NCBI GenBank assembly: GCA_903918195.1 | Contig: CAIXDS010000071.1 | Span: 1 to 24,000, forward strand | Direction of reading: 5' to 3' | DNA length: 24,000 nt | Source: an uncultured Acetobacteraceae bacterium | GTDB lineage: Bacteria; Pseudomonadota; Alphaproteobacteria; Acetobacterales; Acetobacteraceae | Shown: positions 933 through 13,958 of the stretch, in pieces | Numbering within the stretch: position 1 is the stretch's first letter | Layout of the letters: each line of letters starts with the position of its first letter | The notes under the pieces: model-generated | The model's input: the letters and a program-made list of their open reading frames with translations, nothing else | Databases searched by the model: none | What the model was told of the DNA's origin: nothing | Made by a program: the position numbers and the translations under genes

Positions 933-999
933 CCGAGAAGTGAAAGTTCTCGGACGGAATGAATATTCTCGGACAAAATGGGAATTTCCGGACGGAATG
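933..999. repeat. Inverted repeat plus three 19-bp-phased direct repeats upstream of the integrase gene (candidate recombinase or regulator binding sites)
   Basis: 'ccgagaa' 933-939 is the reverse complement of 'ttctcgg' 947-953. 'ttctcggacggaatg' 947-961, 'ttctcggacaaaatg' 966-980 and 'tttccggacggaatg' 985-999 recur with an exact 19-bp period. The array ends about 80 bp upstream of the preferred integrase start. Confidence 0.5.
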
Positions 1000-1078
1000 C
1001 GAGCGGCCGGCGATGCTACGGCGGTTTGGCACGCCGGCGGCCGGCGCCCGAGCGGGCAGGGCAGCAGGGGGGGGAGAC

Positions 1079-2050
1079 ATGGACGACATCGTGCCCGCCG
1101 CGGCGGGCAGCATCCCGGTGGCGTTGGGGCAGGAAGCGGACACCGCGTGCGACTATGCCGCTGCCAGCCGTGCCGCTTCCACCCGGCTGATCTACGACGC
1201 TGACTGGCAACGGTTTCAAACCTGGTGCGCTGCGCGCGGCGAGCCGCCGCTCCCCGCCGATCCGGTGACGGTGGCGCGGTTCTGCGCCGGCGAGGCCGAA
1301 GCCGGCCGCGCGCCGTCCACCATCACCCGCCGGCTGGCCGCCATCGGTTGGGCGCACAAGCTCGCCGGGCTCAAGCCGCCGCAGCACGCCGACGGCGGCG
1401 GGGCGATCGCCGAAGTCATGGCCGGCATCCGGCGGTCGCGCGCCGCGCCGCCGGCGCAAAAGGCCGCGGCCGATGCCGATGTGCTGCGCGACATGCTGCG
1501 CGCCTGCTCCGGTGAGAAACTGCGCGTCGTGCGGGCGCGCGCGGTGCTTGCCATCGGGTTCGCCGGTGCGTTCCGGCGCTCGGAACTGGTCGCTCTCCGT
1601 GTCGAGGATATCCGCCGGGATGGAGAAGGCATCCGGGTGGTGATCCGGCGATCCAAAGCAGATCAGGAAGGCGAGGGGGCGACGGTGGCCATTCCGCACG
1701 GCGACCGTCTGCGTCCGGTGGCCGCGCTCGATGCCTGGCTGGCGGCCGGCCGGGTGGCGGAGGGCTTCGTGTTCCGCCGGATCGGCCGGGCCGGTCAGGT
1801 GACGGACGGCCCGATGAGCGACCGCGCCGTCGCCCGGCTGGTCCAGGCCGCCGCCAAGGGCGCCGGTTACGACCCGGCGCTGTTCGGCGGGCATTCGCTG
1901 CGGGCTGGCTTCATCACCAGCGCGGCGCGGACGGGCGCCAGCATCTTCAAAATCCAGGAGATCTCGCGCCATCGCAGCCTGCAGGTGCTCGCTGGTTACG
2001 TGCGCGACACCCAAATCTATCGCGATCACGCGGGGAGCGGGTTCCTGTAG
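1079..2050 (+). CDS. Tyrosine recombinase / phage-type integrase (Cre/XerD-like layout)
   Basis: ORF 959-2050. Catalytic signature: 'GAFRRSELVAL' (Arg I), 'GGHSLRAGFITSAA' (His-x-x-Arg), 'SRHRS' and 'LAGYVRD' (Tyr nucleophile). The N-terminal core-binding region is 'TRLIYDADWQRFQTWCAARG...TITRRLAAIGWAHK'. Start placed at ATG 1079 after a G-rich tract; ATG 959 or 1013 remain possible. Confidence 0.9.
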   Translation: MDDIVPAAAGSIPVALGQEADTACDYAAASRAASTRLIYDADWQRFQTWCAARGEPPLPADPVTVARFCAGEAEAGRAPSTITRRLAAIGWAHKLAGLKPPQHADGGGAIAEVMAGIRRSRAAPPAQKAAADADVLRDMLRACSGEKLRVVRARAVLAIGFAGAFRRSELVALRVEDIRRDGEGIRVVIRRSKADQEGEGATVAIPHGDRLRPVAALDAWLAAGRVAEGFVFRRIGRAGQVTDGPMSDRAVARLVQAAAKGAGYDPALFGGHSLRAGFITSAARTGASIFKIQEISRHRSLQVLAGYVRDTQIYRDHAGSGFL

Positions 2051-2159: not shown

Positions 2160-3107
2160 TCACTGCTTGGTGCTCGATATTATGGCCGGAACTTGTGCCG
2201 CGTTTTGTAGACGGGACAGTTCCGCCTGCGTTTCTGCCAGGGCATTTGCCTCTGAGCGCGCCACTTCCTCGGCGTTCACGAGGACGAGTTGCTTGCGCAG
2301 CGGAGGAACACAGCCATCATCCAAGTCGAGACCTAGCCGGGTCTTCACGTAATAGCCGAAGCACGTCCGTACGTTCATCTCCATCAAACCGTTGCTCATG
2401 CGGTGCTCAGCTTCCAATGCGCGCTTGGCCGATTCTTCCAAGGCTGGATTGGCTGCCAGGCGGAGGGTCATAATCGTGTGCCAGCCACGGTCAGCGTTGG
2501 AGTCAACGTCGCAGTCGCGTTCCCCTGTGACGCCGGTTATTCGTGACACGACGAAGTCCCGAAAATCATGGTGGGTCGCGCAGTAGGCCCTGACGTGCCA
2601 GCGGTCGCCATCGTCGGCGAATGCATGTGGGGCTATCCATCGGACTGTCGGTTGGGGGTGGGAGAATGACTGATAGGTAACCTCGATAAGCCTCCGTTCG
2701 CGCACGGCCGCGAGCAAGCCCTGCAGAACGACGTCGTCCAGCTTCCTATCCGTACGTGGCACCGCCCGCTCAGCGGTCACGCCAGCGGCCCAAGGCGGCC
2801 TATCGGCACCTTGCTGTCGTTTCTCGGTTCTTTCGAGATCGGCCAGCACATCCATTGCGGACGGCAGGTGAAGGACAGGCCGGAAGCCCGTCCCACGGAG
2901 ATAGGTTTTCCGGCTTCGGTCATAGACTGCGTTGTCCGGCGCAAGCTCGACGTAGCGCGCCAGGTCCACCGAGGCCTGCGGGATCGATATCCCGAAGTGC
3001 CTCACTAGGTCCGACCGGTTCACCCGGCCGGCCCAGAACAGGCACGCGTCTAGGAAAGAAAGCCTCCTTCCCACCCCCCAACGCAGACCGACTCCATCAT
3101 CCGACAT
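2160..3107 (-). CDS. WYL-domain transcriptional regulator, CapW/BrxR-like (wHTH-WYL-C-terminal extension)
   Basis: ORF 2160-3179 trimmed to ATG 3107, which has AGGGGAG (complement of 3114-3120) 6 nt upstream. wHTH: 'RLSFLDACLFWAGRVNRSDLVRHFGISIPQASVDLARY'. WYL domain: 'IEVTYQSFSHPQPTVRWIAPHAFADDGDRWHVRAYCATHHDFRDFVVSRI'. Divergent from the Ubl operon. Confidence 0.85.
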   Translation of the reverse strand: MSDDGVGLRWGVGRRLSFLDACLFWAGRVNRSDLVRHFGISIPQASVDLARYVELAPDNAVYDRSRKTYLRGTGFRPVLHLPSAMDVLADLERTEKRQQGADRPPWAAGVTAERAVPRTDRKLDDVVLQGLLAAVRERRLIEVTYQSFSHPQPTVRWIAPHAFADDGDRWHVRAYCATHHDFRDFVVSRITGVTGERDCDVDSNADRGWHTIMTLRLAANPALEESAKRALEAEHRMSNGLMEMNVRTCFGYYVKTRLGLDLDDGCVPPLRKQLVLVNAEEVARSEANALAETQAELSRLQNAAQVPAIISSTKQ

Positions 3108-3140
3108 GTGCAACTCCCCTGCCCGCGAATCTTGCGTCGG

Positions 3141-3178
3141 TGAGTATTGAAAGTCTATGAATCTAGAAACTAGACTCA
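3141..3178. promoter_or_regulatory. AT-rich nested palindromes overlapping a sigma70-like promoter in the divergent WYL/Ubl intergenic region (candidate WYL operator)
   Basis: TCTAG (3162-3166)-aaa-CTAGA (3170-3174); AGTCTA 3152-3157 pairs with TAGACT 3171-3176; TGAGT 3141-3145 pairs with ACTCA 3174-3178. A possible -35 TTGAAA (3147-3152) and -10 TAGACT (3171-3176) have an 18-nt spacer and point toward 3269. This is the only AT-rich patch in the 161-bp intergenic region. Confidence 0.45.
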
Positions 3179-3268
3179 TCGGTCAGATGGGTGCATACTC
3201 CCCCGTGTCGCGAGTCGTGGTGCCCTTGGTGGGCTGCGGCGGTGCGGACATTGGAACGGAGAGCGCAG

Positions 3269-4357
3269 ATGGACTTCGCAGATGGACACCATGATGACGC
3301 GATAAGCAGGATCGTCATCGACGGGCAGGAGCATACGGTGCATCGGCACCGGATGTTGGTGGCTGAGATATTGGCTCTGGTCGGTCGGTCCCCGGAGGAA
3401 TGGGAACTGGATGCAGAGCTTGCTGGTGGAGACCACGTTACTCTCGGCGGCGATGACGAGGTGAAGTTGCGTGAGGGCGGTATCGTCCGGTTCCACACGC
3501 GCCGCCGGCACCATCATCATCATGGGGATCATTGCGAACTCACCGTCGTCGTGAACAGTGAGCCGATCGTTTTGGATGTGCGCCGTTCGACGCTCCTTTC
3601 TGCCGTGGTCACCGAGGTTCTGGAAAAGGCGAAGCCGACGGGCAGGCCCGACGACCAATGGGAGATGAAGACCGAGGCCGGACAAGTGCTTGATCAGGCG
3701 CTGTCGCTTGAAGCCGCCCATGTGGAGTGCGGGGCAACGCTCTACCTTTCCCTGAAGGCTGGTGCCGCCGGCGAGGCGATGACCGAGCTTCTGGTTGATC
3801 CAGAGGTATCACGGGCGAAATTCTACGAAGAGGTGCGGGATTACCAGCGGGTGCAGGACGCTATGATCCGCCGTGGCCAATGGCTGATCACCGCCGAATA
3901 TCCAGAGGTTTTCGTCGTGTTTGGTGCCCCAAACAGCAATTATCCCACCTGGGCTTTCGGCGCGGTCCTGGACTTCACAAACTACGACCTGTGGCCCGCG
4001 TCAGTGAATCTGGTGAACCCCTTCACGAAGGTGCCCTATCGGGCGGCCGAGATGCCGGCGCCAGCCTGGCTTCAGCGCGTGAACATGAGCACCAACATTC
4101 CTGGCGAGACGCCTACCAACGTCATGTCCGTGGACAGGCTAATGCAGGCTCAGCGGCCGGAAGAAGTTCCCTTCCTGTGTCTGCCTGGCGTGCGGGAGTA
4201 TCACGCGCATCCTGCCCACACCGGAGATAGTTGGTTGCTTCGCCGGACATCTGGGGAAGGCAAGCTGTACAGGCTGCTGGATGTCTTATTTCAATATGGT
4301 TCTGCGCCGATTTGTGGTCTGCATGTGCAGCCCGCCATGAACATCGTCCCGCGGTGA
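3269..4357 (+). CDS. Tandem ubiquitin-like (two beta-grasp repeats) fused in frame to an E2/UBC-like domain (BilA-BilB-like fusion)
   Basis: ORF 3191-4357; start set at ATG 3269 (GGAGAG 5 nt upstream). Repeat 1 is 'ISRIVIDGQEHTV...VKLREGGIVRFHT'; then a His-rich linker; repeat 2 is 'ELTVVVNSEPIVLDV...WEMKTEAGQVLDQ...GATLYLSLKAGAAG', ending in Gly168. The E2-like part is 'YPEVFVVFGAPNSNYPTWAFGAVLDFTNYDLWPASVNLVNPFT' with a candidate catalytic Cys304 in 'EEVPFLCLPGV' (codon 4178-4180). 362 aa. Confidence 0.8.
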   Translation: MDFADGHHDDAISRIVIDGQEHTVHRHRMLVAEILALVGRSPEEWELDAELAGGDHVTLGGDDEVKLREGGIVRFHTRRRHHHHHGDHCELTVVVNSEPIVLDVRRSTLLSAVVTEVLEKAKPTGRPDDQWEMKTEAGQVLDQALSLEAAHVECGATLYLSLKAGAAGEAMTELLVDPEVSRAKFYEEVRDYQRVQDAMIRRGQWLITAEYPEVFVVFGAPNSNYPTWAFGAVLDFTNYDLWPASVNLVNPFTKVPYRAAEMPAPAWLQRVNMSTNIPGETPTNVMSVDRLMQAQRPEEVPFLCLPGVREYHAHPAHTGDSWLLRRTSGEGKLYRLLDVLFQYGSAPICGLHVQPAMNIVPR

Positions 4358-4908
4358 CACTTCTGCACCGGTTGTTCGGCGGGAAAGACCCTTTGGGCGA
4401 TGTGCCACGGACCGGGCTCGAATCCGTGGACCGAGTCTTACTGCCCCAATCCTGCGCCGATGCAACGCAGGATCACCTGCGCGCGGCCGGCCGAATGGGT
4501 AACGAGGGATTGGCTGTCTGGTCAGGGGTCCAGGAAGGATCGACGTTCCGCGTGCTGACTGTAACCGCACCACGCCAGCGGGCAGTGAAGAGCGGACAAG
4601 GCGTGTGCGTGGTGCTGGACGGAGACGCTCTACACGGCCTCAACGTCTCGCTGCACAAGGCCGGCGAAAGGCTGTTCGCGCAAGTCCATTCCCATCCCGG
4701 CCGTGCTTATCATTCACCGATGGATGACCAATACGCCGTGGTCACGGCCGCGGGTGGGCTATCGATCGTAGTTCCCGACTTTGCCGTTCGGCCGTTTTCT
4801 GTCGGGGATTGTGCGATCTACCGCCTGACCCGCTCCGGCAAATGGACCGTGATGCCGAAACGGCGGGCGGAGGCGCTTATCTACGTCGTCAAGGACCAGA
4901 CTCCATGA
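4354..4908 (+). CDS. JAB/MPN (JAMM) metallopeptidase, BilC-like deconjugating/processing enzyme
   Basis: ORF 4231-4908; start at GTG 4354 overlapping the upstream TGA (GTGA 4354-4357). The JAMM motif H-x-H-x7-S-x2-D is 'HSHPGRAYHSPMD' at 4687-4725, with an upstream Glu in 'GNEGLAVWSG'. 184 aa. Confidence 0.85.
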   Translation: MTLLHRLFGGKDPLGDVPRTGLESVDRVLLPQSCADATQDHLRAAGRMGNEGLAVWSGVQEGSTFRVLTVTAPRQRAVKSGQGVCVVLDGDALHGLNVSLHKAGERLFAQVHSHPGRAYHSPMDDQYAVVTAAGGLSIVVPDFAVRPFSVGDCAIYRLTRSGKWTVMPKRRAEALIYVVKDQTP

Positions 4909-6434
4909 ACGTCGCCAGCTTCTTCGACCGGAGCGCGACTGCGGTTGCGCAGGTGCTGGGCGAATGCGATTCTGACCGGCTGAGGCTGAAGCTGTCGGGA
5001 TTGGCCGTGGCGCTCGCCTTTGACAGCAAGGCGGTGCGGGCTTCTGAGGGCGTGGCGACGCTGGAATTGGCGACCGACCTACTGGCGCGTTTCTACCCTG
5101 GACTTGGCCTTATCCCATTGGATGACGATCCAGCGACAGTCGCAATGGTAAGCAAATTGGGCGAAGCGGCGGGTGCAATACATCCGGGAATCGAATTGAA
5201 ACCCGAGATGTGTACGGTGTGTTGCTGCCTGATCGTCGGCAGCCGCGTTCCGGCTCTAGGCGTTCCCACCATATTCATCGGTTCGCACGGCTGGAACGCG
5301 ATACTGGACCCAAGCCAGCCAGTCGGAAGCCTGGACACGCTCAACCCGTTCGGCGCCGCGGCCGCGGCATGCGTCGGCGTCGCCAACGCTTTTCGCTTTG
5401 CCTTTGCGGATCTGCTGCCAGACACCCGACCGGATCGAGCCCTCGAATTCGATGTTCTCCATCATCGGCTTGGGCGCTGCTCGGTCGGCCCGGCATTGCC
5501 GGACCGAGTCGATATCGACGGCACCCACCTTGTCGGCCTGGGTGCCATTGGCCGCGCGGCGGCATGGTCGCTTTCCCATGCTCCGGCGCTGCGCGGCCGT
5601 CTCGACGGGGTTGATCACGAGGCGATCGAGGATTCTAATCTACAACGATATGTGGGGGCGACGCAGGCCGATGCTGCCGCTGGCGTGTTGAAGTGCCAAT
5701 CCGTGATGGCGATGTTTCGCGGCTCCGGCGTGCAGGTCGTGGAGCACCCGCTCACATGGGGCCAGTATCTGCGGTCCCGGGCTGATTGCCGTCTTGATCG
5801 GGTGGCCGTCGCGCTGGACACGCCGGACGACCGGATCTCCCTTCAAGCGGCGCTACCCCGCCGGATTCTGAACGCTTGGACGCAGCCGGGTGATCTGGGT
5901 GTCTCCCGTCATGGTTTCACCTCCGGCCCGTGCCTCGCCTGTCTTTACCTGCCAGAGCGTGAGGTGCCGAGCCTCTCCCACCTTGTGGCGGATGCTATTC
6001 GCTTGCCCGAGTTGGAAGTTCGCGGCCTGCTGCATGCCGGCTTTCGAGTAGACGCCGCGTTCTTGGGGCGGGTCGCGCTCGCAGCAGAGGTGCCGCTGGA
6101 AGCTTTGCTACCCTTTGATGGCCTGCCTCTACGCTCGTTCTACACGAAGGCGGTATGCGGCACGACCTGGTTCGGTACCGGCGCCGGCGGCGACCGGGGT
6201 GCAATGGCGGTGCCGATGGCATTCCAGTCCGCGCTCGCCGGTGTTCTGCTCGCCGTCGAAATCGTCGCCGACGCCGTGATGTTGCGCACAACGGCGATGG
6301 CACCGCTCACAAAAATCAATTTACTCAAGCCGCTCGGAAGCCGTTTGGTGGAACCGGCCGCAAAACATAAGTCTGGCCAGTGCATCTGCCAGGACGACAC
6401 ATATCGTGCGGCCTATCAGCGGAAGTATGCCTAA
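4905..6434 (+). CDS. E1-like ThiF/MoeB-family adenylating enzyme with an inactive N-terminal lobe and an active C-terminal lobe (BilD-like)
   Basis: ORF 4809-6434; ATG 4905 overlaps the JAB stop (ATGA 4905-4908). The Rossmann motif 'LVGLGAIGRAAAW' (GLGAIG 5535-5552), 'DHEAIEDSNLQRY' and 'ALDTPDDR' lie in the C-terminal half. Cys pairs 'CLACLY' and 'GQCICQ' look like a zinc site. A helical insertion 'LSHLVADAIRLPELEVRGLLH...FYTKAVCGTTWF' carries a candidate catalytic Cys. The N-terminal ~220 aa lack a nucleotide motif. 509 aa. Confidence 0.85.
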   Translation: MNVASFFDRSATAVAQVLGECDSDRLRLKLSGLAVALAFDSKAVRASEGVATLELATDLLARFYPGLGLIPLDDDPATVAMVSKLGEAAGAIHPGIELKPEMCTVCCCLIVGSRVPALGVPTIFIGSHGWNAILDPSQPVGSLDTLNPFGAAAAACVGVANAFRFAFADLLPDTRPDRALEFDVLHHRLGRCSVGPALPDRVDIDGTHLVGLGAIGRAAAWSLSHAPALRGRLDGVDHEAIEDSNLQRYVGATQADAAAGVLKCQSVMAMFRGSGVQVVEHPLTWGQYLRSRADCRLDRVAVALDTPDDRISLQAALPRRILNAWTQPGDLGVSRHGFTSGPCLACLYLPEREVPSLSHLVADAIRLPELEVRGLLHAGFRVDAAFLGRVALAAEVPLEALLPFDGLPLRSFYTKAVCGTTWFGTGAGGDRGAMAVPMAFQSALAGVLLAVEIVADAVMLRTTAMAPLTKINLLKPLGSRLVEPAAKHKSGQCICQDDTYRAAYQRKYA

Positions 6435-6489
6435 TCTGAATTCCAGTTGCGTGTCGCTTTACGCGCCTTAGGGTAGGAGAAAACCAAGG

Positions 6490-7026
6490 TTGGCCAACCC
6501 GCTGCTCTCAGAGGAGGAAGCCGAAAGGTATTTTCAGCGGCATGAAATGCTATTGGAGTTTTCCCGACTTTTTGACTATGGCGAGGCGAGCGACCGCGCC
6601 GTTGCAATAGTCGGCCCGGCATTTCTTGATACGCTGTTGAGCGAAGCCCTTGTCGAATTCATGATTGAAAATAGGACTGAGGTAAACAAACTGCTCCAAC
6701 CGGATGGGCCACTTGGTACATATGGAAGCCGAGTGACTGCCTGTTATTGCCTTGGACTGACCGGAAAAATTGTCACCAGTGACCTGAGACTTGTTGGCAA
6801 GATCAGGAACCGCTTTGCACACGACATCCGCGCGGACTTTTCCGATTCGAAGATCAGCCAGTGGTGCCGGGCACTCCGCTGGCACAAAGAATTCTTCGCA
6901 GTGCCACCGCCCGATGCAACCGACAGGGACTTGTTCCAAGTTGGAGTCAACCAGCTCGTCTCGCATTTGACCGCCATTCCCGGTGTGGCGCGCCTCAGCA
7001 AGCGCTCTGAGGTCCTCCACACATAG
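6490..7026 (+). CDS. HEPN-superfamily protein, MtlR-like (candidate RNase effector)
   Basis: ORF 6490-7026 (TTG start; AGGAGA about 9 nt upstream; start uncertain). 'GPLGTYGSRVTACYCLGLTGKIVTSDLRLVGKIRNRFAHD' carries the HEPN R-x4-H motif 'RNRFAH' (6805-6822) in the MtlR-type context. Sampled 60-nt blocks are about 47-53% GC, against about 70% in the adjacent E1 gene. 55-bp gap after E1 with no terminator seen. Confidence 0.7.
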   Translation: MANPLLSEEEAERYFQRHEMLLEFSRLFDYGEASDRAVAIVGPAFLDTLLSEALVEFMIENRTEVNKLLQPDGPLGTYGSRVTACYCLGLTGKIVTSDLRLVGKIRNRFAHDIRADFSDSKISQWCRALRWHKEFFAVPPPDATDRDLFQVGVNQLVSHLTAIPGVARLSKRSEVLHT

Positions 7027-7363
7027 TCGGGGTAGCTTGAGCCCGGACGCCGTGCGCCAGATCCTGGGGTCACCACACGATTTTCTCAAAATCGCACGCT
7101 AAGCCGAAAGTCCTTTGGTTTTAGGGTATTGCGCAAACGATCGTGGCTCATACTGGATTCTAGGGTGGTGGAGATCCAAGTGTTTTCAGTGCGTTGTAGA
7201 CGCTTGCACCTGCCAGATGGTCACCTTGCGGCTACCCCGAGCGCCGTGGAGACGCAAACCAACCGGAAAACTGATGCTGCGTTGCCCGCAACCCTACGCT
7301 AACAAATTGATTTTACGGATATTACTACCGCCCCGAAACCCAGGATGAGCCACGCCTTCTGCA

Positions 7364-7397
7364 CCGTCCCCGCTATCCTCGCCCGTCCCCGCTATCC
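7364..7397. repeat. Two 15-bp direct repeats with 19-bp spacing upstream of a small ORF (candidate operator/promoter element)
   Basis: 'ccgtccccgctatcc' occurs at 7364-7378 and again at 7383-7397, 60-95 nt upstream of ATG 7459. Confidence 0.4.
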
Positions 7398-7458
7398 ACA
7401 TGGGGCGCTCCGATGGCTGTGGCCGCACATTGCGAGCGGCAGCCAGAAGGAAACCGCC

Positions 7459-7722
7459 ATGAGCCGAGTCCGCCCGACCGGGGTCCGGATCACCCTGTCG
7501 GGAACCGACCCGGTCGCCATCGAAGCGGCCGCCGACGAACTCAAGCATCGGTTCGCCGCCCGCTTCGCGGTGACCGGACGGCGCTGCTCCCCCGTGTCCG
7601 GAAAGGCGGCCAGGGGAGATCTAACGGTTTGGGGCACACTGCTGGTGGACGTTGCCATTGACCTGGACGCCTCGGTCATGGACCTGCTCGATCGCCTTTA
7701 CGCCGGGCAAGCCGGCGCATGA
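7459..7722 (+). CDS. Small hypothetical protein (87 aa), faint S10/NusE-like pattern
   Basis: Internal ATG 7459 of ORF 7345-7722 with GAAGGA 7 nt upstream. Third-codon positions are mostly G/C, as in confident genes here. No recognisable catalytic motif. Confidence 0.4.
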   Translation: MSRVRPTGVRITLSGTDPVAIEAAADELKHRFAARFAVTGRRCSPVSGKAARGDLTVWGTLLVDVAIDLDASVMDLLDRLYAGQAGA

Positions 7723-8081
7723 GCCTGCCTAAATCTTCAGCATTCCGTGCAACGCGCAGAAATTCAAAGAAGAATTTGTCTAACGCGCCATTTCCCCTCG
7801 AAGTTATCAACAGCTTTGGGGGATATATCCGGTCCAGCGTGGCAGCAGATCATCGCGGTGCGGAGCGGGAGGGGCGCGACGGCGCGCCGGACGCGCCAGT
7901 GCGACACCACGCCAGAGGGACTGGTTGCGTTTCCGTGAGCCTGTATGGCATTCCGGACCACCCCGAAACCTGCCGCACGGCCACCAGCGACGACTGTGAT
8001 CCGCCAGGGTCCGCTTCCGTGGTTCTTCGCAGAACGAAAATCATCGCGGACGCCGCCGGCCAGGATCGATCCGAGCAGTAG
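7719..8081 (+). CDS. Hypothetical protein (120 aa), doubtful
   Basis: ATG 7719 overlaps the stop of the previous ORF (ATGA 7719-7722). The 5' third is AT-rich with atypical codons. An antisense ORF (7764-8099) has similar coding statistics. No motif recognised. Confidence 0.2.
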   Translation: MSLPKSSAFRATRRNSKKNLSNAPFPLEVINSFGGYIRSSVAADHRGAEREGRDGAPDAPVRHHARGTGCVSVSLYGIPDHPETCRTATSDDCDPPGSASVVLRRTKIIADAAGQDRSEQ

Positions 8082-8288
8082 CGGCGAGGCGACCTGCATG
8101 GTCGTTCCGGAATCCTCTGTGGGTCACGAAGATGGTTTCCATACTGGGAGCTTCTGCGACTTCAAGCAGGTGGCCACGTCAGGATCTGTCGTCGTTACGT
8201 GCTATCTGCTTGGGTAAGCCAGACAAGACAGGGAGACAAGCTGAGCCATGAAGCCGATTCCCGCCTCGAAGTCGTGTGTTGCTCGCCC

Positions 8289-8906
8289 ATGACGAACCTT
8301 TGCCCGCGTAGCGGGCACGTCGTGCTGCTCGGCGACTCGGTTTTCGACAATGGTGCCTACGTCGCAGACGGGTTCGATGTCGCGACGCAACTGCACCAAG
8401 CGCTGTCGCCAGCTTGGCGGGCCACGCTGGTTGCTCGGGACGGGGCTGTTGCCGGCGATCTTCCAAACCAAGTCGCACAGCTGCCGGCTGATGCCAGCCA
8501 TCTACTGGTGAGCGTCGGGGGCAACGATGCGCTGGGACACCTGGGCGTGCTCGATGAGCCGGTCGGCTCGGTGGCCGAGGCCCTCGAACGGCTCGCCAGC
8601 ATTCGTGACGCCTTCCGCGCCGATTACCTCGACGCCGTCACCGCCGTGCTGGCTCTCGGCCTGCCGACCTGGCTTTGCACCATTTACGAACCACGTTTTC
8701 CGGAACCAGCGATGCAGCGCGCTGCCATCGTCGCGCTGTCCATCTTCAACGACATCATCACGCGCGCCACGGCAATGCACGGGGTGGACCTGCTCGATTT
8801 GCGGGTGCTGTTCAACGAGGACGGGGACTACGCGAACGCGATCGAGCCCTCTGCCCATGGTGGCGAAAAGATCGCTCGGTCCATCGTGCGCGTGCTGCTG
8901 GCCTGA
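8289..8906 (+). CDS. SGNH/GDSL-family hydrolase
   Basis: ORF 8199-8906 trimmed to ATG 8289. Block I is 'VVLLGDSVFDNG', block III is 'LLVSVGGNDAL', and the C-terminal block V-like segment is 'AIEPSAHGGEKIA'. 205 aa. Confidence 0.8.
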   Translation: MTNLCPRSGHVVLLGDSVFDNGAYVADGFDVATQLHQALSPAWRATLVARDGAVAGDLPNQVAQLPADASHLLVSVGGNDALGHLGVLDEPVGSVAEALERLASIRDAFRADYLDAVTAVLALGLPTWLCTIYEPRFPEPAMQRAAIVALSIFNDIITRATAMHGVDLLDLRVLFNEDGDYANAIEPSAHGGEKIARSIVRVLLA

Positions 8907-9008
8907 CCACGCGCATCTATCGGTGGCGGTGATGTGCTATGGTTGCCCGGGGCCGACGCCGCCTGCCTTGCCCGGCTGGTGTCGCGGCGCAAATGACATG
9001 CACATCGT

Positions 9009-9440
9009 TCATTCCTCACCCGGCAACGGTACGTGCCGAACGCTCCGGTAATGGTCATCAGGCAGGATCGTTTCCCCGTGTGCCACGATGCCAAAGCAGT
9101 CTGTGATGAGGCGGACGAACCCCGGCTGGTGCAACTGCCTGTCGGCCCGGATGACGAAGCGCCGTGCCACGGAATCATAGAGAACACGGCCACGTGGCCA
9201 TTCCTCGTATTCGGACCAGACTGGAGCCGTTGGAATTCCATCTCCGCGGAGTGCACGCGCGCCACGGCGGGCCAGCCGCGACCAGTGCTCAAGATGGCCC
9301 GTGTCCACGGTCAGCATGTCGCCATAGGCCTCGGCCCGTTCCAGCGGGACGGCCAGTGCGATGACGGTCGATTTTCCGCCCTCCTCGACCACCCAGAACG
9401 GGCCGACCATCCCGCCTCCGTCTGGTTTCGCCCCGTTCAT
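9009..9440 (-). CDS. Hypothetical protein (143 aa) translationally coupled to the DUF2779 gene
   Basis: ORF 9009-9503 trimmed to ATG 9440, which overlaps the upstream stop (ATGA on the minus strand, 9440-9437). G/C-rich third positions. Conserved-looking segments are 'GPFWVVEE', 'SEYEEWPRGRVLYD' and 'RFVIRADRQL'. Family not recognised. Confidence 0.65.
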   Translation of the reverse strand: MNGAKPDGGGMVGPFWVVEEGGKSTVIALAVPLERAEAYGDMLTVDTGHLEHWSRLARRGARALRGDGIPTAPVWSEYEEWPRGRVLYDSVARRFVIRADRQLHQPGFVRLITDCFGIVAHGETILPDDHYRSVRHVPLPGEE

Positions 9441-10921
9441 TGCTGCGCCAGCTTTGCCAGAGCGCGGTGCACCTCGACCATGGCAAGCGTATCGCGCTGG
9501 CAATAGGCGCGCAGCGCGGCCTGCAACCGATCGGCTTCCTCGGGAACCGCGAGAACGCCGGAGGCTAACTGCAGGAACGCCGCCGCCGCCGCGAGTCCAT
9601 CGGCGATGCCGTCGAGATCGTCGTAACCAAAGCCGGGGCGGAGGGCGGGAGCAACGGATTTGATCGAGTTGCTGAAGCCGAACTCAGGAAGGTAGACGGT
9701 ACCGCGCACGATCGGCAGCAGGTCCAGCAGCCGGGCGATGATCGCGGCGATCCCCGAGCACAGATCGGAGAACCGCGCCGCCAGTTCCTTCAGCTGCGTC
9801 TGTTCATAGGCCGAATAGACGATGATCGGCCCATCGAAGGCCCCGAGTGCCTCGATCAGCGTTTCGGCGAATCGGCGCCGCGGATCTTCGCTGCCATCGG
9901 CGAGGAACTCCCGGTGATGCAGGGCACCGTCGTCGGCGATCGCGTGCAATGACCATTGAAAGGGAAGAGTCTGGTAGGGTCGCGTCCCTTCGTAGAGCGG
10001 GATGGGTGGCATCATCGCCTCGAAGTCCAGGTAGCAGGCGGGAGGGCCGTAGCCCGGCAGCAGGCGTGCCAGATCGGGAGCGATGTAGGGCCGCCCGCTT
10101 GCGGTCGCATCGCGGATGATGGCTTGCTTTCCCGTCAGCGGGAAATCCGCCGGGATTGCTGAAATGGCATCGATGCCGCGCGCCTGGAGCTCGCTCGCGC
10201 GGGCATGCGACAGACGGGGGAGATAGGCGATCCAGTCGGCCGGCTTGTGTGCCGTGCACCGGTCCCAGTACTCGCACTCATAGGGCGCGCGGCACTGGCT
10301 GCCCGGCTCGGCATCCGGAGGCTCGGCCATGCGCAGACATGCCCGCATGGCGGGCAGCGCCGCGGGCAGGTCGCCAAGCCTCTTCGCCACCTCGGCACCG
10401 ATGTCGCTTCGGGCGAAGAACTCCGGCCAACTGATGCCGCCGGCCCCGCGAACATAGGACGTGTTCACATGGAGATGCTCGACGGATGGGATGGGGATGC
10501 CAGCGCCCCTGAGAACGTGGAGCTGAAGAGCAATGTCGTCGACATGATGGTCCTTGACGCTGGCGCTGCTCTTCACTTCCCGTAGTCCCCAGGTCGCGTT
10601 GCCCCGCCGTTCAAGCACGTCCACCCGGATACGGATATCGTCGTGCTCGAACGCGGCCTCGAAGATCGCCGGCACGCCCGTATCGTCCATCAGCGCGGCC
10701 GTGCGGGCGCGGGCTTCGGCATGCTGCCACGGTTCCTGGTCGACGAGCACGCCACCAGGAAACAGCAGGTACGCCTTGCGGCCGATCTGCTGTCCGATGT
10801 CCAGCGGGGATCCCGGCAGTGGTTCCTCGTAATTCGGCGGCTCGTTGACCAGCAGCCAGAGCCGGCGCAGGCATTGCAGACCGGCGATGTAGCGCGACTT
10901 GGTGAGATGCTGACCGGGCAC
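9437..10921 (-). CDS. DUF2779-type protein: N-terminal Cas4/RecB-like PD-(D/E)xK nuclease with a Cys cluster plus a C-terminal RNase H-like exonuclease domain
   Basis: ORF 9437-11089. Family N-terminus 'LTKSRYIAGLQCLRRLW'. Nuclease motif 'IRIRVDVLERR...WGLREVKSS'. Cys cluster 'QC...CRAPYECEYWDRC'. C-terminal 'CYLDFEAMMPPIPLYEGTRPYQTLPFQWSLH'. Start moved to GTG 10921 because the 56 upstream codons have clearly lower GC3; ATG 11089 remains possible. Confidence 0.85.
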   Translation of the reverse strand: MPGQHLTKSRYIAGLQCLRRLWLLVNEPPNYEEPLPGSPLDIGQQIGRKAYLLFPGGVLVDQEPWQHAEARARTAALMDDTGVPAIFEAAFEHDDIRIRVDVLERRGNATWGLREVKSSASVKDHHVDDIALQLHVLRGAGIPIPSVEHLHVNTSYVRGAGGISWPEFFARSDIGAEVAKRLGDLPAALPAMRACLRMAEPPDAEPGSQCRAPYECEYWDRCTAHKPADWIAYLPRLSHARASELQARGIDAISAIPADFPLTGKQAIIRDATASGRPYIAPDLARLLPGYGPPACYLDFEAMMPPIPLYEGTRPYQTLPFQWSLHAIADDGALHHREFLADGSEDPRRRFAETLIEALGAFDGPIIVYSAYEQTQLKELAARFSDLCSGIAAIIARLLDLLPIVRGTVYLPEFGFSNSIKSVAPALRPGFGYDDLDGIADGLAAAAAFLQLASGVLAVPEEADRLQAALRAYCQRDTLAMVEVHRALAKLAQQ

Positions 10922-11193
10922 TGATTGCGTCCGAGGTGGATGCAGAATCCTCCACGCCCCGATTGTTGTCGGCAACCGGAAATCGTCGCGCCTGGATGTG
11001 ACCACGTCCGCTTCTGTCGTGGCGGTGGCGTATTCTTTCGGAACGCCGCAGTGACAGGAGGCCACCGAACCGGCTATGACACGCTCCATGCCATGAGCAC
11101 CTGACCCGAGACCTCTTTGACGCTCAGGAATCAGCCCGCACTCGGACTCTGTCCGGACGGTCTGGTCCGCGTGTGTTCATCGAGGAGGTCCCC

Positions 11194-11551: not shown

Positions 11552-11815
11552 CCCGTCAGCACGCCATCCGAAAGCTGTGATCGATGTCGCAATTGACAGC
11601 CGCCGCCGGCGCGGCCTATCCGTCCGGTTCCGTAAGCACCTGTCTGCCCACCCGAGCCACCCTGTCCGCCATCCCGCCGGCCCTCGGTCGCGCGGGCATT
11701 TTGCGTTCAGCGATGACCAACGCAGCGGCGAAGGCCGACCTGCGCGTTCCTGCACGACTAGGTTTGACGCACGACAGGCGCATCTCTCCCACGCGTGCGG
11801 TCAGGAAAAACTGAC

Positions 11816-13939
11816 ATGACCATTTCCGAGTATATGGAAATCGAGCACGCCGCGCCGGCGCGGTCGGTCAACAGCGGGCGGTGCCTGGCGCTCCGCTGCG
11901 CCCGCAATGTCTGCGCCGCGGCCTCCCGCCGCTCTCCAGAGGCCCGGGCGGTTGCCGACTGGCTCGCCGAACATGCCGAGGCACTCGGCCTGCCCGATGC
12001 GGCGCCGCCGGAGGAGAGCATGCCCGTCGGCACGCAGCGCCGCCGCGGCGTCTCGGCCGAGGTCTGGGACTGGGTCGGGCAGACGCTGGAGGATGCCTGG
12101 AACAGTGAGGCCGCCGCGGCGAACACGGCGGCCGAACGCTGGGCCAACGCCATCGCCGCCAGGCTCGCGCTTGATCCGGCGGAAGCGTCGGTCTTCTCCC
12201 TGGCGCTGCATTACCGGCTGGACCAGCGGGTCGAAAACCTGTTCGACGCGGTCAGCCAGTCCCGCGGCGGCCGGTCACAGCTCCACCGCGATGTGGCGCT
12301 GATCGGGCTGCTGCTCGGGGAAGCCGAGGCCGGGATCGAGGCGCGCCTGATGCCTGAAGCTCCGCTGCTGGCCAGCGGCCTGCTGCATCTCGACCGGGAC
12401 GGCGACCTGATGGTCCTGCACCAACTCGTCTGCCTCATCCGGCGGAACACCCCCCCGGGCGCCGATCTGTACGACCACCTGCTCGGCAAGGCGGCGGGCG
12501 ATCCGCTGCCTTGGGAGGCGTTCGCACATCTCGGCCGCGAGGCGGAGGTCGCGGCCGAGGTGCTGCGGGCGACGCTTGCCGCGCGGGAGAGCGGCGTCAA
12601 CATCCTGCTTTACGGGCCGCCGGGCACCGGGAAGACCTCATTCGCCGCCACCCTGGCCGCCCATGTCGGCGCCCGGCTGCGGCCGGTGACGGAAGCCAGC
12701 GAAAGCGGTTGGGAACCCCGGCGGCACGAGCGCCTGGCCGGGCTGCTGTTGGCCCAGCGCCTGGCGGCACCGGGGGAGACGCTGCTGTTGTTCGACGAGG
12801 CCGAGGACCTCTTCGTCGCCCGCACCTATCGGGACGGCGACTTGGTGGCGAGTTCGCGCGTCTTCATGCATCGCCTTCTCGAACGCATGACATTGCCGGT
12901 GATCTGGACCGCGAACGACATCGGCGCGCTCGGCCCGGCGGTGCTGCGGCGGATGACGATGTGCCTGGAGCTGAAGGTGCCGAACGTGGTGACGCGGACC
13001 CGGCTCTGGCGCCAGATGGCGACGGCGGAAGGTGTCGCGTTGCCGGAGGCCGACGCCGCCCGCCTCGCCCGGCTGGTTCCGGCCGCCCCCGCCGTCGCTT
13101 CCGCCGCGCTGCGGGCGACGCGCCTCGCCGGCGGCGGGGCGGAGACGGCCAGGCTGATCATCGAGGGCGTGGCGCGCGCGGTGCAGGGCGGTGGCCTTCC
13201 GCTGCCGGAGCCGGAGCACGATGCCGATTACGACCCCGCGCTGGTGAACGCGGATTGCGACCTCGCGTCCCTGACCGCCGGTCTGGTGCGGCAACGTGCG
13301 CCGCGCGCGGTTTCGTTCCTGCTGGCGGGACCGCCGGGCACGGGCAAGAGCGTCTGGGTGCGGCACCTCGCGGCGCGGATGGGGATGCAGGTGCTCCAGA
13401 AGCGTGCCTCCGACCTGCTCAATTCGTTCCTCGGCGGCACCGAGCGGAACATCGCCGACGCCTTCGCCGAGGCGCGGGACACCGGCGCCTTCCTGGTGTT
13501 CGACGAGGCCGACAGCCTGCTGCTCGACCGCGCCGACGCGGTGCGCAGCTGGGAGATCAGCCAGGTCAACGAGATGCTCACCTGGATGGAGCAGCATCCG
13601 TTGCCGTTCGCCTGCACGACCAACCTCCCGGCCCGCCTCGACCGCGCCAGCCTGCGCCGCTTCCTGGTCAAGGTCAGCTTCGACTGGCTGACGCAGGCCC
13701 AGGCGCGGCTGGCCTTCCGGCGGTTCTTCGGCATGGCGCCGCCCGCGGGACTCGACGGCCTGCTGACACTGACGCCCGCGGATTTCGCGCTGGTCCGGCG
13801 GCGCGCCGCGGTGACCGGCGCCACGGCGAACCAGGCGGCGCTGCTGCGTCTGCTGGCCGCCGAGTGCGAGGGCCGGGTCGGCGGGCGGCTGCAGGTCGGG
13901 TTCGCGGCCAGGGCGGCGGGTGATTGCGATGCCGCATAG
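11816..13939 (+). CDS. Tandem classical AAA+ ATPase (two AAA modules, Cdc48/VAT-like arrangement) with an unassigned ~250-aa N-terminal region
   Basis: ORF 11795-13939; ATG 11816 (AGGA about 9 nt upstream). AAA1: Walker A 'GPPGTGKT' 12614-12637, Walker B 'LLLFDEAEDL', 'WTANDIGALGPAVLRRM'. AAA2: Walker A 'GPPGTGKS' 13328-13351, pore-loop-like 'NSFLGGTE' (FLG 13427-13435), Walker B 'FLVFDEADSL', second region of homology 'TTNLPARLDRASLRRF'. 707 aa. Confidence 0.85.
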   Translation: MTISEYMEIEHAAPARSVNSGRCLALRCARNVCAAASRRSPEARAVADWLAEHAEALGLPDAAPPEESMPVGTQRRRGVSAEVWDWVGQTLEDAWNSEAAAANTAAERWANAIAARLALDPAEASVFSLALHYRLDQRVENLFDAVSQSRGGRSQLHRDVALIGLLLGEAEAGIEARLMPEAPLLASGLLHLDRDGDLMVLHQLVCLIRRNTPPGADLYDHLLGKAAGDPLPWEAFAHLGREAEVAAEVLRATLAARESGVNILLYGPPGTGKTSFAATLAAHVGARLRPVTEASESGWEPRRHERLAGLLLAQRLAAPGETLLLFDEAEDLFVARTYRDGDLVASSRVFMHRLLERMTLPVIWTANDIGALGPAVLRRMTMCLELKVPNVVTRTRLWRQMATAEGVALPEADAARLARLVPAAPAVASAALRATRLAGGGAETARLIIEGVARAVQGGGLPLPEPEHDADYDPALVNADCDLASLTAGLVRQRAPRAVSFLLAGPPGTGKSVWVRHLAARMGMQVLQKRASDLLNSFLGGTERNIADAFAEARDTGAFLVFDEADSLLLDRADAVRSWEISQVNEMLTWMEQHPLPFACTTNLPARLDRASLRRFLVKVSFDWLTQAQARLAFRRFFGMAPPAGLDGLLTLTPADFALVRRRAAVTGATANQAALLRLLAAECEGRVGGRLQVGFAARAAGDCDAA

Positions 13940-13958
13940 AAGAAGGCAGCATGCCGCC

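Follow-up and report, generated by a model that had tools for sequence, protein, structure and literature searches.

We analysed a 24,000-nt stretch of DNA from an uncultured Acetobacteraceae bacterium (hereafter, the window) and confirmed the presence of five open reading frames (ORFs) at the positions listed in Table 1. The three central genes are linked by true start/stop overlaps (GTGA at 4354–4357 between bilAB and bilC; ATGA at 4905–4908 between bilC and bilD), and matches to solved Bil proteins were far beyond chance (E-values of 1e-39 to 1e-123 for BilB, BilC and BilD). Profile HMM searches, put forward as a check in the preliminary description of the locus, matched Pfam Multi_ubiq, Metal_CEHH, PF14459 and ThiF, together with the PADLOC BilC and BilD models. 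Profile matches, solved structures and catalytic residues thus bear out the Bil-type operon of ubiquitin-like protein (Ubl), E2, JAB peptidase and E1 that had been read from the DNA alone; the gene order Ubl-E2-DUB-E1 was kept in every related Type II Bil locus with scorable genes. We found no CD-NTase gene among the main ORFs scanned in the window and no sulfur-transfer or cofactor biosynthesis gene among the ORFs scanned, in agreement with the preliminary description as regards CD-NTase and sulfur-transfer partners.

Table 1 Features of the locus (positions in the window).
Feature	Position	Strand	Evidence
Tyrosine recombinase/integrase flanking the cassette (context)	959–2050	+	Pfam Phage_integrase, 6.5e-14
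CapW, wHTH-WYL-WCX transcriptional repressor, divergent from bilAB	2160–3107	-	PDB and Pfam matches
Mobile cassette (CapW, bilAB, bilC, bilD, HEPN)	2192–7027	.	Collinearity with L001 and L090
Candidate bil promoter and candidate CapW operator	3147–3179	+	Sigma-70-like match, imperfect palindrome
bilAB, BilA (two-beta-grasp Ubl) fused to BilB (E2), 362 aa	3269–4357	+	Pfam and PDB matches, AF2 model
Ubl tail K163-A-G-A-A-G168 and linker E169-L174; predicted BilC cut after Gly168 (codon 3770–3772)	3755–3790	+	
E2 active site C304, E310, H312, H317 (CEHH motif)	4178–4219	+	Conservation, alignment to E. aridi BilB
bilC, JAMM/JAB deubiquitinase-type peptidase; E51, H112, H114, D124	4354–4908	+	PDB and PADLOC matches
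bilD, E1; inactive and active adenylation domains, CYS insertion with C418	4905–6434	+	PDB and Pfam matches
Spacer bilD-HEPN, 55 nt; Shine-Dalgarno TAGGAG (6474–6479)	6435–6489	+	
MtlR-like HEPN protein, 178 aa, predicted RNase	6490–7026	+	Motif, AF2 fold, weak MtlR models

The bilAB product carried the Pfam domains Multi_ubiq, DUF2604 and Metal_CEHH (2.4e-44), the last being a label for the E2 domain that crystal structures have superseded. Residues 10–168 matched BilA (8u38; 5.2e-14) and residues 175–355 matched the E2 BilB (8tyz_C; 8.9e-39), while the AF2 model placed the two beta-grasp domains at 13–79 and 88–162 and the E2 at 175–350; the PADLOC Bil models gave no match to this gene. Two Ubl repeats followed by an E2 with Cys304, as originally proposed, are therefore supported. 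Cys304 is the invariant 'PFLC' cysteine and aligns with the catalytic C138 of Ensifer aridi BilB; among the homologues C304, H312 and H317 were invariant and E310 invariant or nearly so, with spacing identical to that of E. aridi C138/E144/H146/H151. At the junction, G165 and G168 were invariant among fused homologues, the Ubl tail aligned with the end of BilA encoded as a separate protein (...AGVAG in 8u38), and residues 164–174 were modelled with pLDDT below 50. E. aridi BilC cuts BilA after Gly97 (Chambers et al., bioRxiv 10.1101/2023.09.26.559546), and experiments on Type I Bub have established that BubCD cuts the BubAB precursor (Ye et al., bioRxiv 10.1101/2024.11.21.623953). Given these precedents, the flexible linker and the match of the tail to the ends of free BilA, the BilAB junction is predicted to be cleavable. 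The full architecture recurred in ~23 database clusters, BilA and BilB were fused in 14 of 160 related Type II Bil loci, and the BilD tree indicated several separate origins; the fusion is genuine and recurrent, and the departure from the four-gene layout noted earlier stands.

BilC matched the solved BilC DUB (PDB 8tyx_B; 3.3e-43) and the PADLOC BilC model (1.5e-15) and contained the JAMM motif 'HSHPGRAYHSPMD', in keeping with its first assignment. At the positions equivalent to its E51 and D124, E. aridi BilC has E33 and D106, the mutation of which abolishes cleavage (Chambers et al., bioRxiv 10.1101/2023.09.26.559546). Similarly, residues 2–508 of BilD matched residues 2–506 of the E1 BilD (PDB 8tyz_A; 4.6e-123), i.e. 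over the full length, with additional matches to Pfam PF14459 and ThiF and to the PADLOC BilD model (7e-11). The region named 'Prok-E2_C' by Pfam (PF14459; residues 38–168, 1.2e-26) is the inactive adenylation domain (IAD) of the E1, the label having been superseded by crystal structures (Chambers et al., bioRxiv 10.1101/2023.09.26.559546). The active adenylation domain contained 'GLGAIG', and CLAC and CIC cysteine clusters were also present; C418 (codon 6156–6158) aligns with the catalytic C417 of E. aridi E1 and is the predicted catalytic cysteine, so that the E1 with cysteine pairs and a cysteine-bearing insertion was correctly recognised.

On sequence grounds, the locus is assigned to Type II BilABCD, formerly the 'CEHH/6C' family, characterised in E. 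aridi TW10 by Chambers et al. (bioRxiv 10.1101/2023.09.26.559546; PDB 8TYX, 8TYZ, 8TZ0). The two operons have four activities in common, arranged alike (Ubl, CEHH-type E2, JAMM DUB and E1 with IAD, AAD and CYS), all E. aridi catalytic residues are conserved, and the Ubl matched at 2e-10 in addition to the E1, E2 and DUB matches above. The E. aridi Ubl is one beta-grasp domain, whereas that of the window has two (Ubl2 makes up <1% of the Type II Bil Ubls that have been catalogued), is translated together with the E2 as a single chain, and belongs to a locus with a HEPN gene 3' of bilD. The regulator also differs: those recorded for Bil are CapH+CapP, found in 15% of operons (Chambers et al., bioRxiv 10.1101/2023.09.26.559546), and CapK+CapS. 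Type I Bub (BubAB/BubCD; Ye et al., bioRxiv 10.1101/2024.11.21.623953) likewise has a Ubl-E2 precursor, cut by the operon's own JAMM peptidase to expose the Ubl C-terminal glycine, as predicted here, and is often associated with CapW (8% of operons). However, the E1 and E2 of Bub have no catalytic cysteine and act via serine oxyesters, whereas C304 and C418 are invariant cysteines; the Bub peptidase is fused to the E1, whereas BilC is separate; and the DUF6527 protease BubE has no counterpart in the window. The Ubl-E2 fusion is thus taken as convergent and not as a mark of Bub. A two-beta-grasp, ISG15-like Ubl is also combined with E2, JAB and E1 in Type I BilABCD of Collimonas sp. OK412 (Millman 2022; Hor et al., bioRxiv 10.1101/2023.09.04.556158). 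That operon is a distinct sequence family, the PADLOC Bil models matching only BilC and BilD of the window, and its Ubl, unlike the fused one, already terminates in the glycine and so requires no processing.

The window was collinear with locus L001 (an Acetobacteraceae MAG) only over 2192–7025 (89.6% identity) and with L090 over 2192–7027 (90.0% identity); L001 and L090 were 98.5% identical over the cassette and diverged ~35 bp past the HEPN stop codon. Outside 2192–7027 both diverged from the window, the left border being visible in L001 only, where the final ~10 codons of capW fall outside the common block. The genes flanking the cassette differed, namely a tyrosine integrase (window), a Type I R-M system (L001) and a resolvase (L090), and the GC content of the cassette was 0.54–0.63 compared with ~0.72 for host genes; the integrase gene itself was host-like (GC 0.72), and no homologue of it was found in L001. 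The shared block with divergent surroundings indicates a discrete, horizontally moved cassette.

The divergent gene encodes a protein whose residues 10–302 matched CapW (PDB 9c5g; 9.6e-53), with further matches to CapW 7tb5/7tb6 (~1e-47), BrxR 7t8k (1.9e-30) and Pfam WYL (1.5e-13), confirming the CapW/BrxR-like WYL regulator first suggested. The CapW/BrxR repressors of CBASS and BREX (PDB 9C5G, 7TB5, 7TB6, 7T8K), which it matches over the full length, are likewise placed divergently upstream of a defence operon; this CapW, in contrast, accompanies a Type II Bil operon, a pairing of which we found no mention in the texts consulted. In the neighbourhood survey, CapW lay upstream in 9 of 119 scorable related Bil loci. 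According to the literature, CapW represses until it binds ssDNA. The 161-nt CapW-bilAB intergenic region contained a candidate promoter with a weak match to the consensus (-35 TTGAAA at 3147, -10 TAGACT at 3171–3176), overlapped by an imperfect palindrome, ATGAATCTAGAAACTAGACTCAT, at 3157–3179, in which 9 of 10 arm positions match and of which L001 and L090 retain only part. Two sigma-70-like matches were obtained on the plus strand (only the 3147 site is intergenic) against 1.5 expected from shuffles; because this is no excess, the site is suggestive only as a promoter or operator. A TTGACC-N17-CATATAGTTT element with a related CTAGTTT core was common to four alphaproteobacterial CapW-Bil loci.

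The fifth gene starts with TTG after a spacer in which a simple scan detected neither a terminator-like site nor a promoter match, as the preliminary description had stated for the terminator. Its product was confirmed as HEPN through the fold of the AF2 model (pLDDT 91.2), best matched by MtlR (6kcr/3brj) and YggD (3c8g) and next by HepS (9oij), and through an RNxFAH motif (Rx4H; R106-N107-x-F109-A110-H111, encoded at 6805–6822) invariant across 46 homologues; matches to Pfam MtlR (3.3e-5) and NCBIfam MltR (3.6e-6) were both below cut-offs. The invariant motif and the confident fold suggest an MtlR-like HEPN RNase that is metal-independent and catalytically competent. Its family is large and highly conserved, with at least 454 clusters at 58–92% identity (5,497 representative clusters at E ≤ 1e-3), and homologues 70–83% identical occupy unrelated contexts, occurring alone on plasmids or ICEs, at 3' ends of R-M operons, or with AbiEii. 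Similarity to these homologues was limited to the coding region, GC content (0.544) was below that of the bil genes, and unrelated defence genes hold the same position 3' of bilD in other Bil loci. In the neighbourhood survey only 2 of 101 scorable loci, both ~90% identical relatives, had this HEPN gene after bilD; it was absent from the next-closest fused relatives (L002–L004 and L092). Taken together, these results argue for a promiscuous add-on: most likely, an accessory gene for a predicted RNase that was captured recently and is transcribed with the operon, rather than a Bil component. The earlier reading of a Bil operon with a fifth gene therefore holds for physical position only, the gene being limited to one cassette lineage (~90% identity) and its family being promiscuous. 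A free-standing HEPN RNase without an antitoxin would need some means of staying inactive; no holding mechanism or antitoxin partner was identified in the window.

We consider it unlikely that the HEPN protein is instead a true fifth Bil component, either an effector RNase toggled by Ubl conjugation or a co-sensor of a phage tail-tip protein. The gene shares the strand of bilD with its own Shine-Dalgarno sequence and no intervening terminator, lies inside a mobile block found in three independent genomic contexts that ends exactly at the HEPN stop codon, as would also be expected of an integrated fifth gene, and follows a spacer that is conserved in L001 and not found 5' of HEPN genes elsewhere, i.e. 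cassette-specific and not imported with a promoter. Furthermore, HepS, the standalone HEPN abortive-infection protein of the Gifsy-1 prophage, binds the lambda J tail tip (Sargen et al., Nature 2026, PMC13043305; PDB 9OIJ, 9OIK), and in Type I Bil the Ubl is attached to the central tail fibre; if the HEPN protein senses a Bil-modified tail-tip protein, two layers of defence would depend on a single phage protein. HepS, MtlR/YggD (PDB 6KCR, 3BRJ, 3C8G) and the window protein are all small (~180–190 aa), single-domain HEPN proteins, and HepS and the window protein both keep an Rx4-6H motif and lack an antitoxin partner. However, the HepS match was weak (E 0.04–0.1, TM 0.47–0.48, versus TM 0.5–0.6 for MtlR/YggD) and sequence profile comparison detected no relation; the gene was missing in 99 of 101 Type II Bil loci with room for it; the three cassettes (~90–98% identical) represent one recent lineage, not independent co-occurrence; and close homologues reside elsewhere.

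An anti-phage role itself could be questioned, the operon serving protein modification in a DNA-damage or general stress response: DNA damage is a signal for CapW-type regulators, the Bub and CapK/CapS authors suggest that such operons may serve broader stress responses, and we found no demonstration in the texts consulted of an anti-phage activity or target for Type II Bil. This appears rather improbable, given that this mobile cassette lies next to integrase, R-M or resolvase genes, that other Type II Bil loci adjoin Thoeris, AbiE, OLD-nuclease and R-M genes, and that the homologous Type I Bil protects against phages. As for the last gene, it is very unlikely to encode a non-catalytic MtlR-like regulator binding protein or RNA, since R106, N107 and H111 are invariant, Anantharaman et al. 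predict motif-keeping MtlR-family members to be active RNases, and no HEPN locus examined shows the mannitol/PTS context of E. coli MtlR; this holds even though the best sequence and fold matches, the former below curated cut-offs, are E. coli and Vibrio MtlR and YggD, homologues are annotated 'MltR family transcriptional regulator', and some of the MtlR family are thought in the literature to be non-catalytic. Finally, an assembly or frameshift artefact behind the fusion, or a ThiS/MoaD-type sulfur-carrier pathway (weak E1 matches to NCBIfam MoeB/ThiF, E ~2e-3, far below cut-offs), is refuted by the recurrence of the fused ORF with a conserved junction in independent loci, the end-to-end BilD match with IAD and CYS domains, the Ubl and catalytic-cysteine E2 matches, the JAMM peptidase and the lack of sulfur-transfer or cofactor biosynthesis genes among the ORFs scanned in the window.

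For the cassette as a Type II Bil system, we infer every mechanistic step as follows. CapW would bind the divergent promoter region and silence the operon; as in its family, release would come with ssDNA arising from DNA damage or phage replication. The three bil genes would form one transcript, probably reading into the HEPN gene in view of the 4-nt overlaps, short gap and lack of a terminator. BilC would cut the BilAB precursor after Gly168, separating the E2 from a two-beta-grasp Ubl whose C-terminal glycine is then exposed. By homology, BilD would adenylate Gly168, form a thioester at C418 and pass the Ubl to C304 of BilB, which would join it to target lysines, most likely, by analogy with Type I Bil, of a phage tail-tip or central-tail-fibre protein. 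The HEPN protein would be expressed with the cassette, probably as a separate abortive-infection-type effector outside the conjugation chemistry.

Region 2192–7027 is thus likely a horizontally acquired defence cassette with a Type II BilABCD conjugation system at its core. Its layout is uncommon, with BilA and BilB as one precursor, CapW upstream and a predicted HEPN RNase gene added at the end; judged by its sequence, the 4.8-kb cassette is of a mobile anti-phage kind already characterised, and because Type II BilABCD is known structurally and biochemically, the locus is less novel than the first reading implied.

We found that the window system is a member of the already characterised Type II Bil family with an uncommon layout: BilA and BilB come as a single precursor, CapW is the regulator, and a HEPN gene has been captured. 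All five open reading frames named in the preliminary description were present at the positions it assigned to them, and the 4-nt start/stop overlaps that it reported at both bil junctions (GTGA at bilAB/bilC, ATGA at bilC/bilD) are real. A consensus scan between bilD and the HEPN gene found no terminator-like site, in agreement with that description; the gap between these two genes is 55 nt, the divergent capW–bilAB intergenic region is 161 nt, and the HEPN start codon has TAGGAG upstream at 6474–6479. Both the observation and the interpretation of the locus hold.

Genes and reading frames in the window, with database matches for those outside the cassette
Feature	Coordinates	Strand	Type or match
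WYL gene (capW)	2160–3107	−	ORF
bilAB, 362 aa	3269–4357	+	ORF
bilC, 184 aa	4354–4908	+	ORF
bilD, 509 aa	4905–6434	+	ORF
HEPN gene, 178 aa, TTG start	6490–7026	+	ORF
GDSL-like hydrolase	8199–8906		Pfam matches sub-threshold
Unannotated 164-aa ORF	9009–9503	−	
DUF2779 protein resembling RecB/Cas4 nucleases	9437–11089	−	
Double-AAA ATPase	within 11795–16314		PADLOC IetA matches, 6e-27
WYL-WCX regulator	13920–15005		PDB 8tp8/9pfq, ~5e-71
PD-(D/E)XK protein	within 11795–16314		PADLOC candidate PDC-S26, 8.5e-23

BilD aligned end to end with the E1 (BilD) of the Ensifer aridi Type II system (8tyz_A, 4.6e-123; residues 2–508 to 2–506), with C418 aligned to the catalytic C417. Residues 175–355 of BilAB matched the E2 (BilB) (8tyz_C, 8.9e-39) and residues 10–168 matched BilA Ubls (8u38, 5.2e-14; 8tyx_A, 2e-10), while BilC matched the DUB (BilC) (8tyx_B, 3.3e-43). 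In the BilB part, C304, H312 and H317 are invariant and E310 nearly so, with the spacing of E. aridi C138/E144/H146/H151; together with Ubl G168, the JAMM residues of BilC (E51, H112, H114, D124) and BilD C418, the set of catalytic residues is complete. These matches to solved Bil structures show that the earlier reading of bilAB as Ubl repeats joined to an E2-like domain, Cys304 included, was right.

Profile searches, which had been proposed as a check, returned Multi_ubiq and DUF2604 for the Ubl part, PF14455 ‘Metal_CEHH’ for the C-terminal domain of BilAB (2.4e-44), and PF14459 ‘Prok-E2_C’ at the N-terminus of BilD (1.2e-26) plus ThiF. The labels Metal_CEHH and Prok-E2_C seem to contradict the preliminary description, a conflict settled by comparison with solved structures: the CEHH proteins proved to be E2s that have diverged, C138 being the catalytic residue, PF14459 is the inactive adenylation domain of E1, and ‘CEHH/6C’ operons have been renamed Type II BilABCD (Chambers et al., 10.1101/2023.09.26.559546). 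PADLOC gave no match for bilAB and moderate matches for BilC and BilD, which we attribute to Bil models that appear to represent Type I; the PDB sequence search resolved this. With an E1, a CEHH-type E2, a Ubl and a JAMM peptidase encoded on one strand in the order Ubl-E2-DUB-E1, the locus, judged by sequence, qualifies as Type II BilABCD (CEHH/6C). By homology, its E1 and E2 would attach the Ubl to lysines of a target, with processing by the DUB and a putative role in phage defence.

Other ubiquitin-like systems were weighed against this assignment. A Bub (Type I) system is recognised by Ser catalytic residues in E1 and E2, a JAMM–E1 fusion and the DUF6527 protease BubE; it was ruled out by the invariant Cys304 and Cys418, the separate BilC, and the lack of a DUF6527 match among the scanned window ORFs. 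Type II CBASS Cap2/Cap3, which combines a CD-NTase with the E1–E2 fusion Cap2, was likewise ruled out; Pfam and PADLOC scans of the window ORFs found no CD-NTase, as the first description had remarked, and the PADLOC E1–E2 model reached just 0.0051 over 48 residues. A sulfur-carrier reading of the E1 was rejected, its NCBIfam MoeB matches being sub-threshold.

BilA and BilB are separate in E. aridi Type II Bil, whereas in the window they form one polypeptide encoded by a single ORF; published accounts of Bil operons in the literature consulted describe separate Ubl and E2 proteins. The fusion is not an artefact: the same 360–400-aa Ubl2-E2 architecture occurs in ~23 database clusters, other fused forms exist (Ubl1-E2, ~300 aa; Ubl3-E2, 448 aa), and 14/160 fetched Type II Bil loci (about 9%) carry a fused BilA–BilB. 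When BilD sequences were arranged by neighbour joining, the Ubl2-E2 loci clustered as one group and the remaining fused loci were scattered among unfused ones, indicating repeated fusion with several origins.

At the junction (SLKAGAAG168 followed by EAMTELLVDPEV), G165 and G168 are invariant. In the alignment G168 falls opposite the terminal Gly of free-standing BilA, and instead of a stop codon the E2 follows, starting ~6 residues on. The AlphaFold model of BilAB has beta-grasp domains at 13–79 and 88–162 and a low-confidence linker at 164–174, followed by the E2. E1 adenylation requires a free glycine carboxylate, and BilC would therefore have to cleave the BilAB precursor. Such a cleavage is well precedented by analogy, in that E. 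aridi BilC cuts a BilA–GFP fusion after Gly97 (Chambers et al., 10.1101/2023.09.26.559546), and DUB-dependent precursor activation has parallels in Bub and in eukaryotic ubiquitin-fusion precursors. Type II Bil operons also occur in a Ubl-E2 precursor form, in which the DUB would become obligatory for activation.

The two beta-grasp domains of BilAB are separated by a His-rich linker, RRRHHHHHGDH (window 3464–3502, BilAB residues 66–78), whose His run is kept throughout the Ubl2-E2 fused clade; because filament formation by Ubl3 proteins has been reported to be Ca2+-dependent, this linker may bind metal. An 11-nt direct repeat, CGCAGATGGAC, spans the bilAB start codon (window 3264–3287, two copies 13 nt apart), and its second copy makes an out-of-frame ATG at 3282.

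The regulator gene had been described as a WYL type related to CapW and BrxR, and its product gave a full-length match to solved CapW (9c5g, 9.6e-53 over residues 10–302; 7tb5 and 7tb6, ~1e-47) and a match to BrxR (7t8k, 1.9e-30), identifying it as a CapW/BrxR regulator of wHTH-WYL-WCX architecture. At the level of the family, CapW/BrxR proteins repress adjoining immune operons until ssDNA is bound; repression of the window operon by CapW, relieved by ssDNA or DNA damage, would follow this known family property. Between capW and bilAB there is a single sigma-70-like match (−35 at 3147, −10 at 3171–3176), and an imperfect palindrome, ATGAATCTAGAAACTAGACTCAT, overlaps the candidate −10, with 9/10 arm positions matching in the window and a weaker form in L001 and L090, two loci related to the window cassette. 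We consider this promoter and palindrome suggestive, not decisive, as a candidate CapW operator. A related block, TTGACC-N17-CATATAGTTT (CTTGACCCGTC, ~17 nt, ACAACCCATATAGTTT), is common to the CapW–bil intergenic regions of four other fetched loci (L038, L042, L053 and L063) and may represent a promoter plus operator under CapW control that is conserved among the Type II Bil loci of Alphaproteobacteria. The proposed survey of WYL co-occurrence placed CapW upstream of the bil operon in 9/119 scorable Type II Bil loci, fused and unfused alike. CapW is thereby added to the regulators seen with Bil, which in the literature consulted are CapH+CapP and CapK+CapS.

Sequence common to the window, L001 (from an Acetobacteraceae MAG) and L090 extends over 2192–7025/7027 alone, at ~90% identity; L001 and L090 are 98.5% identical to each other over the cassette and diverge ~35 bp past the HEPN stop. 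The flanks carry a tyrosine integrase in the window, a Type I R-M system in L001 and a serine resolvase in L090. Because the common block is bounded and its flanks differ, we conclude that the five genes travel as a tightly delimited cassette. No terminal direct or inverted repeats of >=8 nt were found at the cassette borders, and no tRNA gene was found in the window, whose host-like genes have a GC content of ~0.72. The last ~10 codons of capW (window 2160–2191) lie outside the block common with L001, with the recombination junction inside the capW 3' end; the C-terminal tail of CapW is therefore encoded by context-specific DNA. That the HEPN gene belongs to the unit, in physical and transcriptional terms at the least, finds its strongest support in this travel as a cassette. 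The three copies represent one recent lineage, and are therefore not independent evidence of functional coupling.

The HEPN protein matched MtlR/MltR models below their cut-offs. Its AlphaFold model (pLDDT 91.2) had MtlR/YggD as best Foldseek matches (prob 1.00, TM 0.5–0.64), a profile of the HEPN alignment found 3brj (MtlR) in the PDB at 2.6e-5, and the HEPN Rx4H RNase motif, R106-N107-x-F109-A110-H111, is invariant in 46 homologues. The modelled all-alpha fold and the Rx4-6H motif place the protein in the MtlR-like family of the HEPN superfamily. MtlR-family members retaining the motif are predicted to be active RNases (Anantharaman et al.), and we likewise predict that this protein is an RNase.

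Co-occurrence of HEPN with Bil was surveyed by HEPN HMM and tblastn. The HEPN gene followed bilD in just 2/101 scorable loci, namely L001 and L090, whose cassettes are ~90% identical to that of the window; it was absent from the next-closest fused relatives. The HEPN family comprises at least 454 clusters, and with a cut-off of E<=1e-3 the number of representative clusters is 5,497. The 120 best clusters, those listed, share 58–92% identity, come from different phyla and include Planctomycetaceae and Thermoanaerobaculia MAGs. Homologues stand alone on plasmids or ICEs with ParA, RPA, TraG or ArdC, beside integrases or transposases, and after an AbiEii-like gene; in two cases the gene closes an R-M-type operon, with stop and start codons that overlap. 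Curated plasmid and phage collections contained only distant relatives (25–34% identity). DNA similarity between the window HEPN gene and copies in other contexts is confined to the coding region, and with a GC content of 0.544 the window gene is poorer in G+C than the bil genes (0.60–0.63). Among the 101 loci, no gene recurred as a fifth member after bilD: the largest cluster comprised just 3 loci, and the neighbours were heterogeneous defence genes. Taken together, several of these lines argue against the HEPN gene as a Bil component.

Homologues with 73–83% identity to the window HEPN were found after HsdS with a 4-nt overlap (L172, 2750–3277), after an N6-methyltransferase and a 484-aa gene (L089, 6001–6558), and after a DUF2442/AbiEii-like gene (L086, 6001–6570); these three loci point to a general ‘3'-end accessory’ habit of the family in defence-type operons. 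Unrelated defence genes also lie directly 3' of bilD, within ~50 bp, in five loci (L033, L045, L030, L049 and L071), encoding ThsB-TIR, AbiEii, an OLD-family nuclease, HsdM and a PHP-SMC (SMC-like) ATPase, and therefore Bil operons typically sit head-to-tail in defence islands.

A functional partnership, in which the HEPN protein would act as a HepS-like sensor-nuclease for the same tail-tip/central-tail-fibre protein that Bil modifies, or would have its activity gated by Ubl conjugation, appears very improbable to us. The idea arises because HepS, an anticodon nuclease, senses the lambda J tail-tip protein (HepS study, PMC13043305) and Type I Bil conjugates its Ubl to the central tail fibre. 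HepS gave a weak fold match to the HEPN protein (E 0.04–0.1, TM 0.47–0.48) and was not found by sequence, nor when the HEPN alignment was run as a profile against the PDB, where MtlR alone matched. The literature searched contained no functional data on this HEPN family. If such cooperation were true, non-lethal tagging of progeny virions would be coupled to a back-up abortive-infection RNase under one CapW switch, and the cassette would be the first example in bacteria of a ubiquitin-like system linked to an effector of its own.

Elsewhere in the window, 11795–16314 may contain a second defence module; around its PD-(D/E)XK gene the GC content is locally low (GC 0.53, GC3 0.57). The genes at 8199–11089 stand between the Bil cassette and this second WYL module, and window 7027–8198 contained short ORFs only, with no family match.

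The core system is already understood, and the value of the window locus is therefore comparative. The cassette, compact, naturally delimited, 4.8 kb long and ready to clone, suits asking whether Type II Bil acts in phage defence, whether precursor processing controls its activity, and whether a HEPN RNase cooperates with tagging. Furthermore, the HEPN family, which is large, conserved to an unusual degree and attached to R-M, AbiE and Bil operons, may merit its own study.
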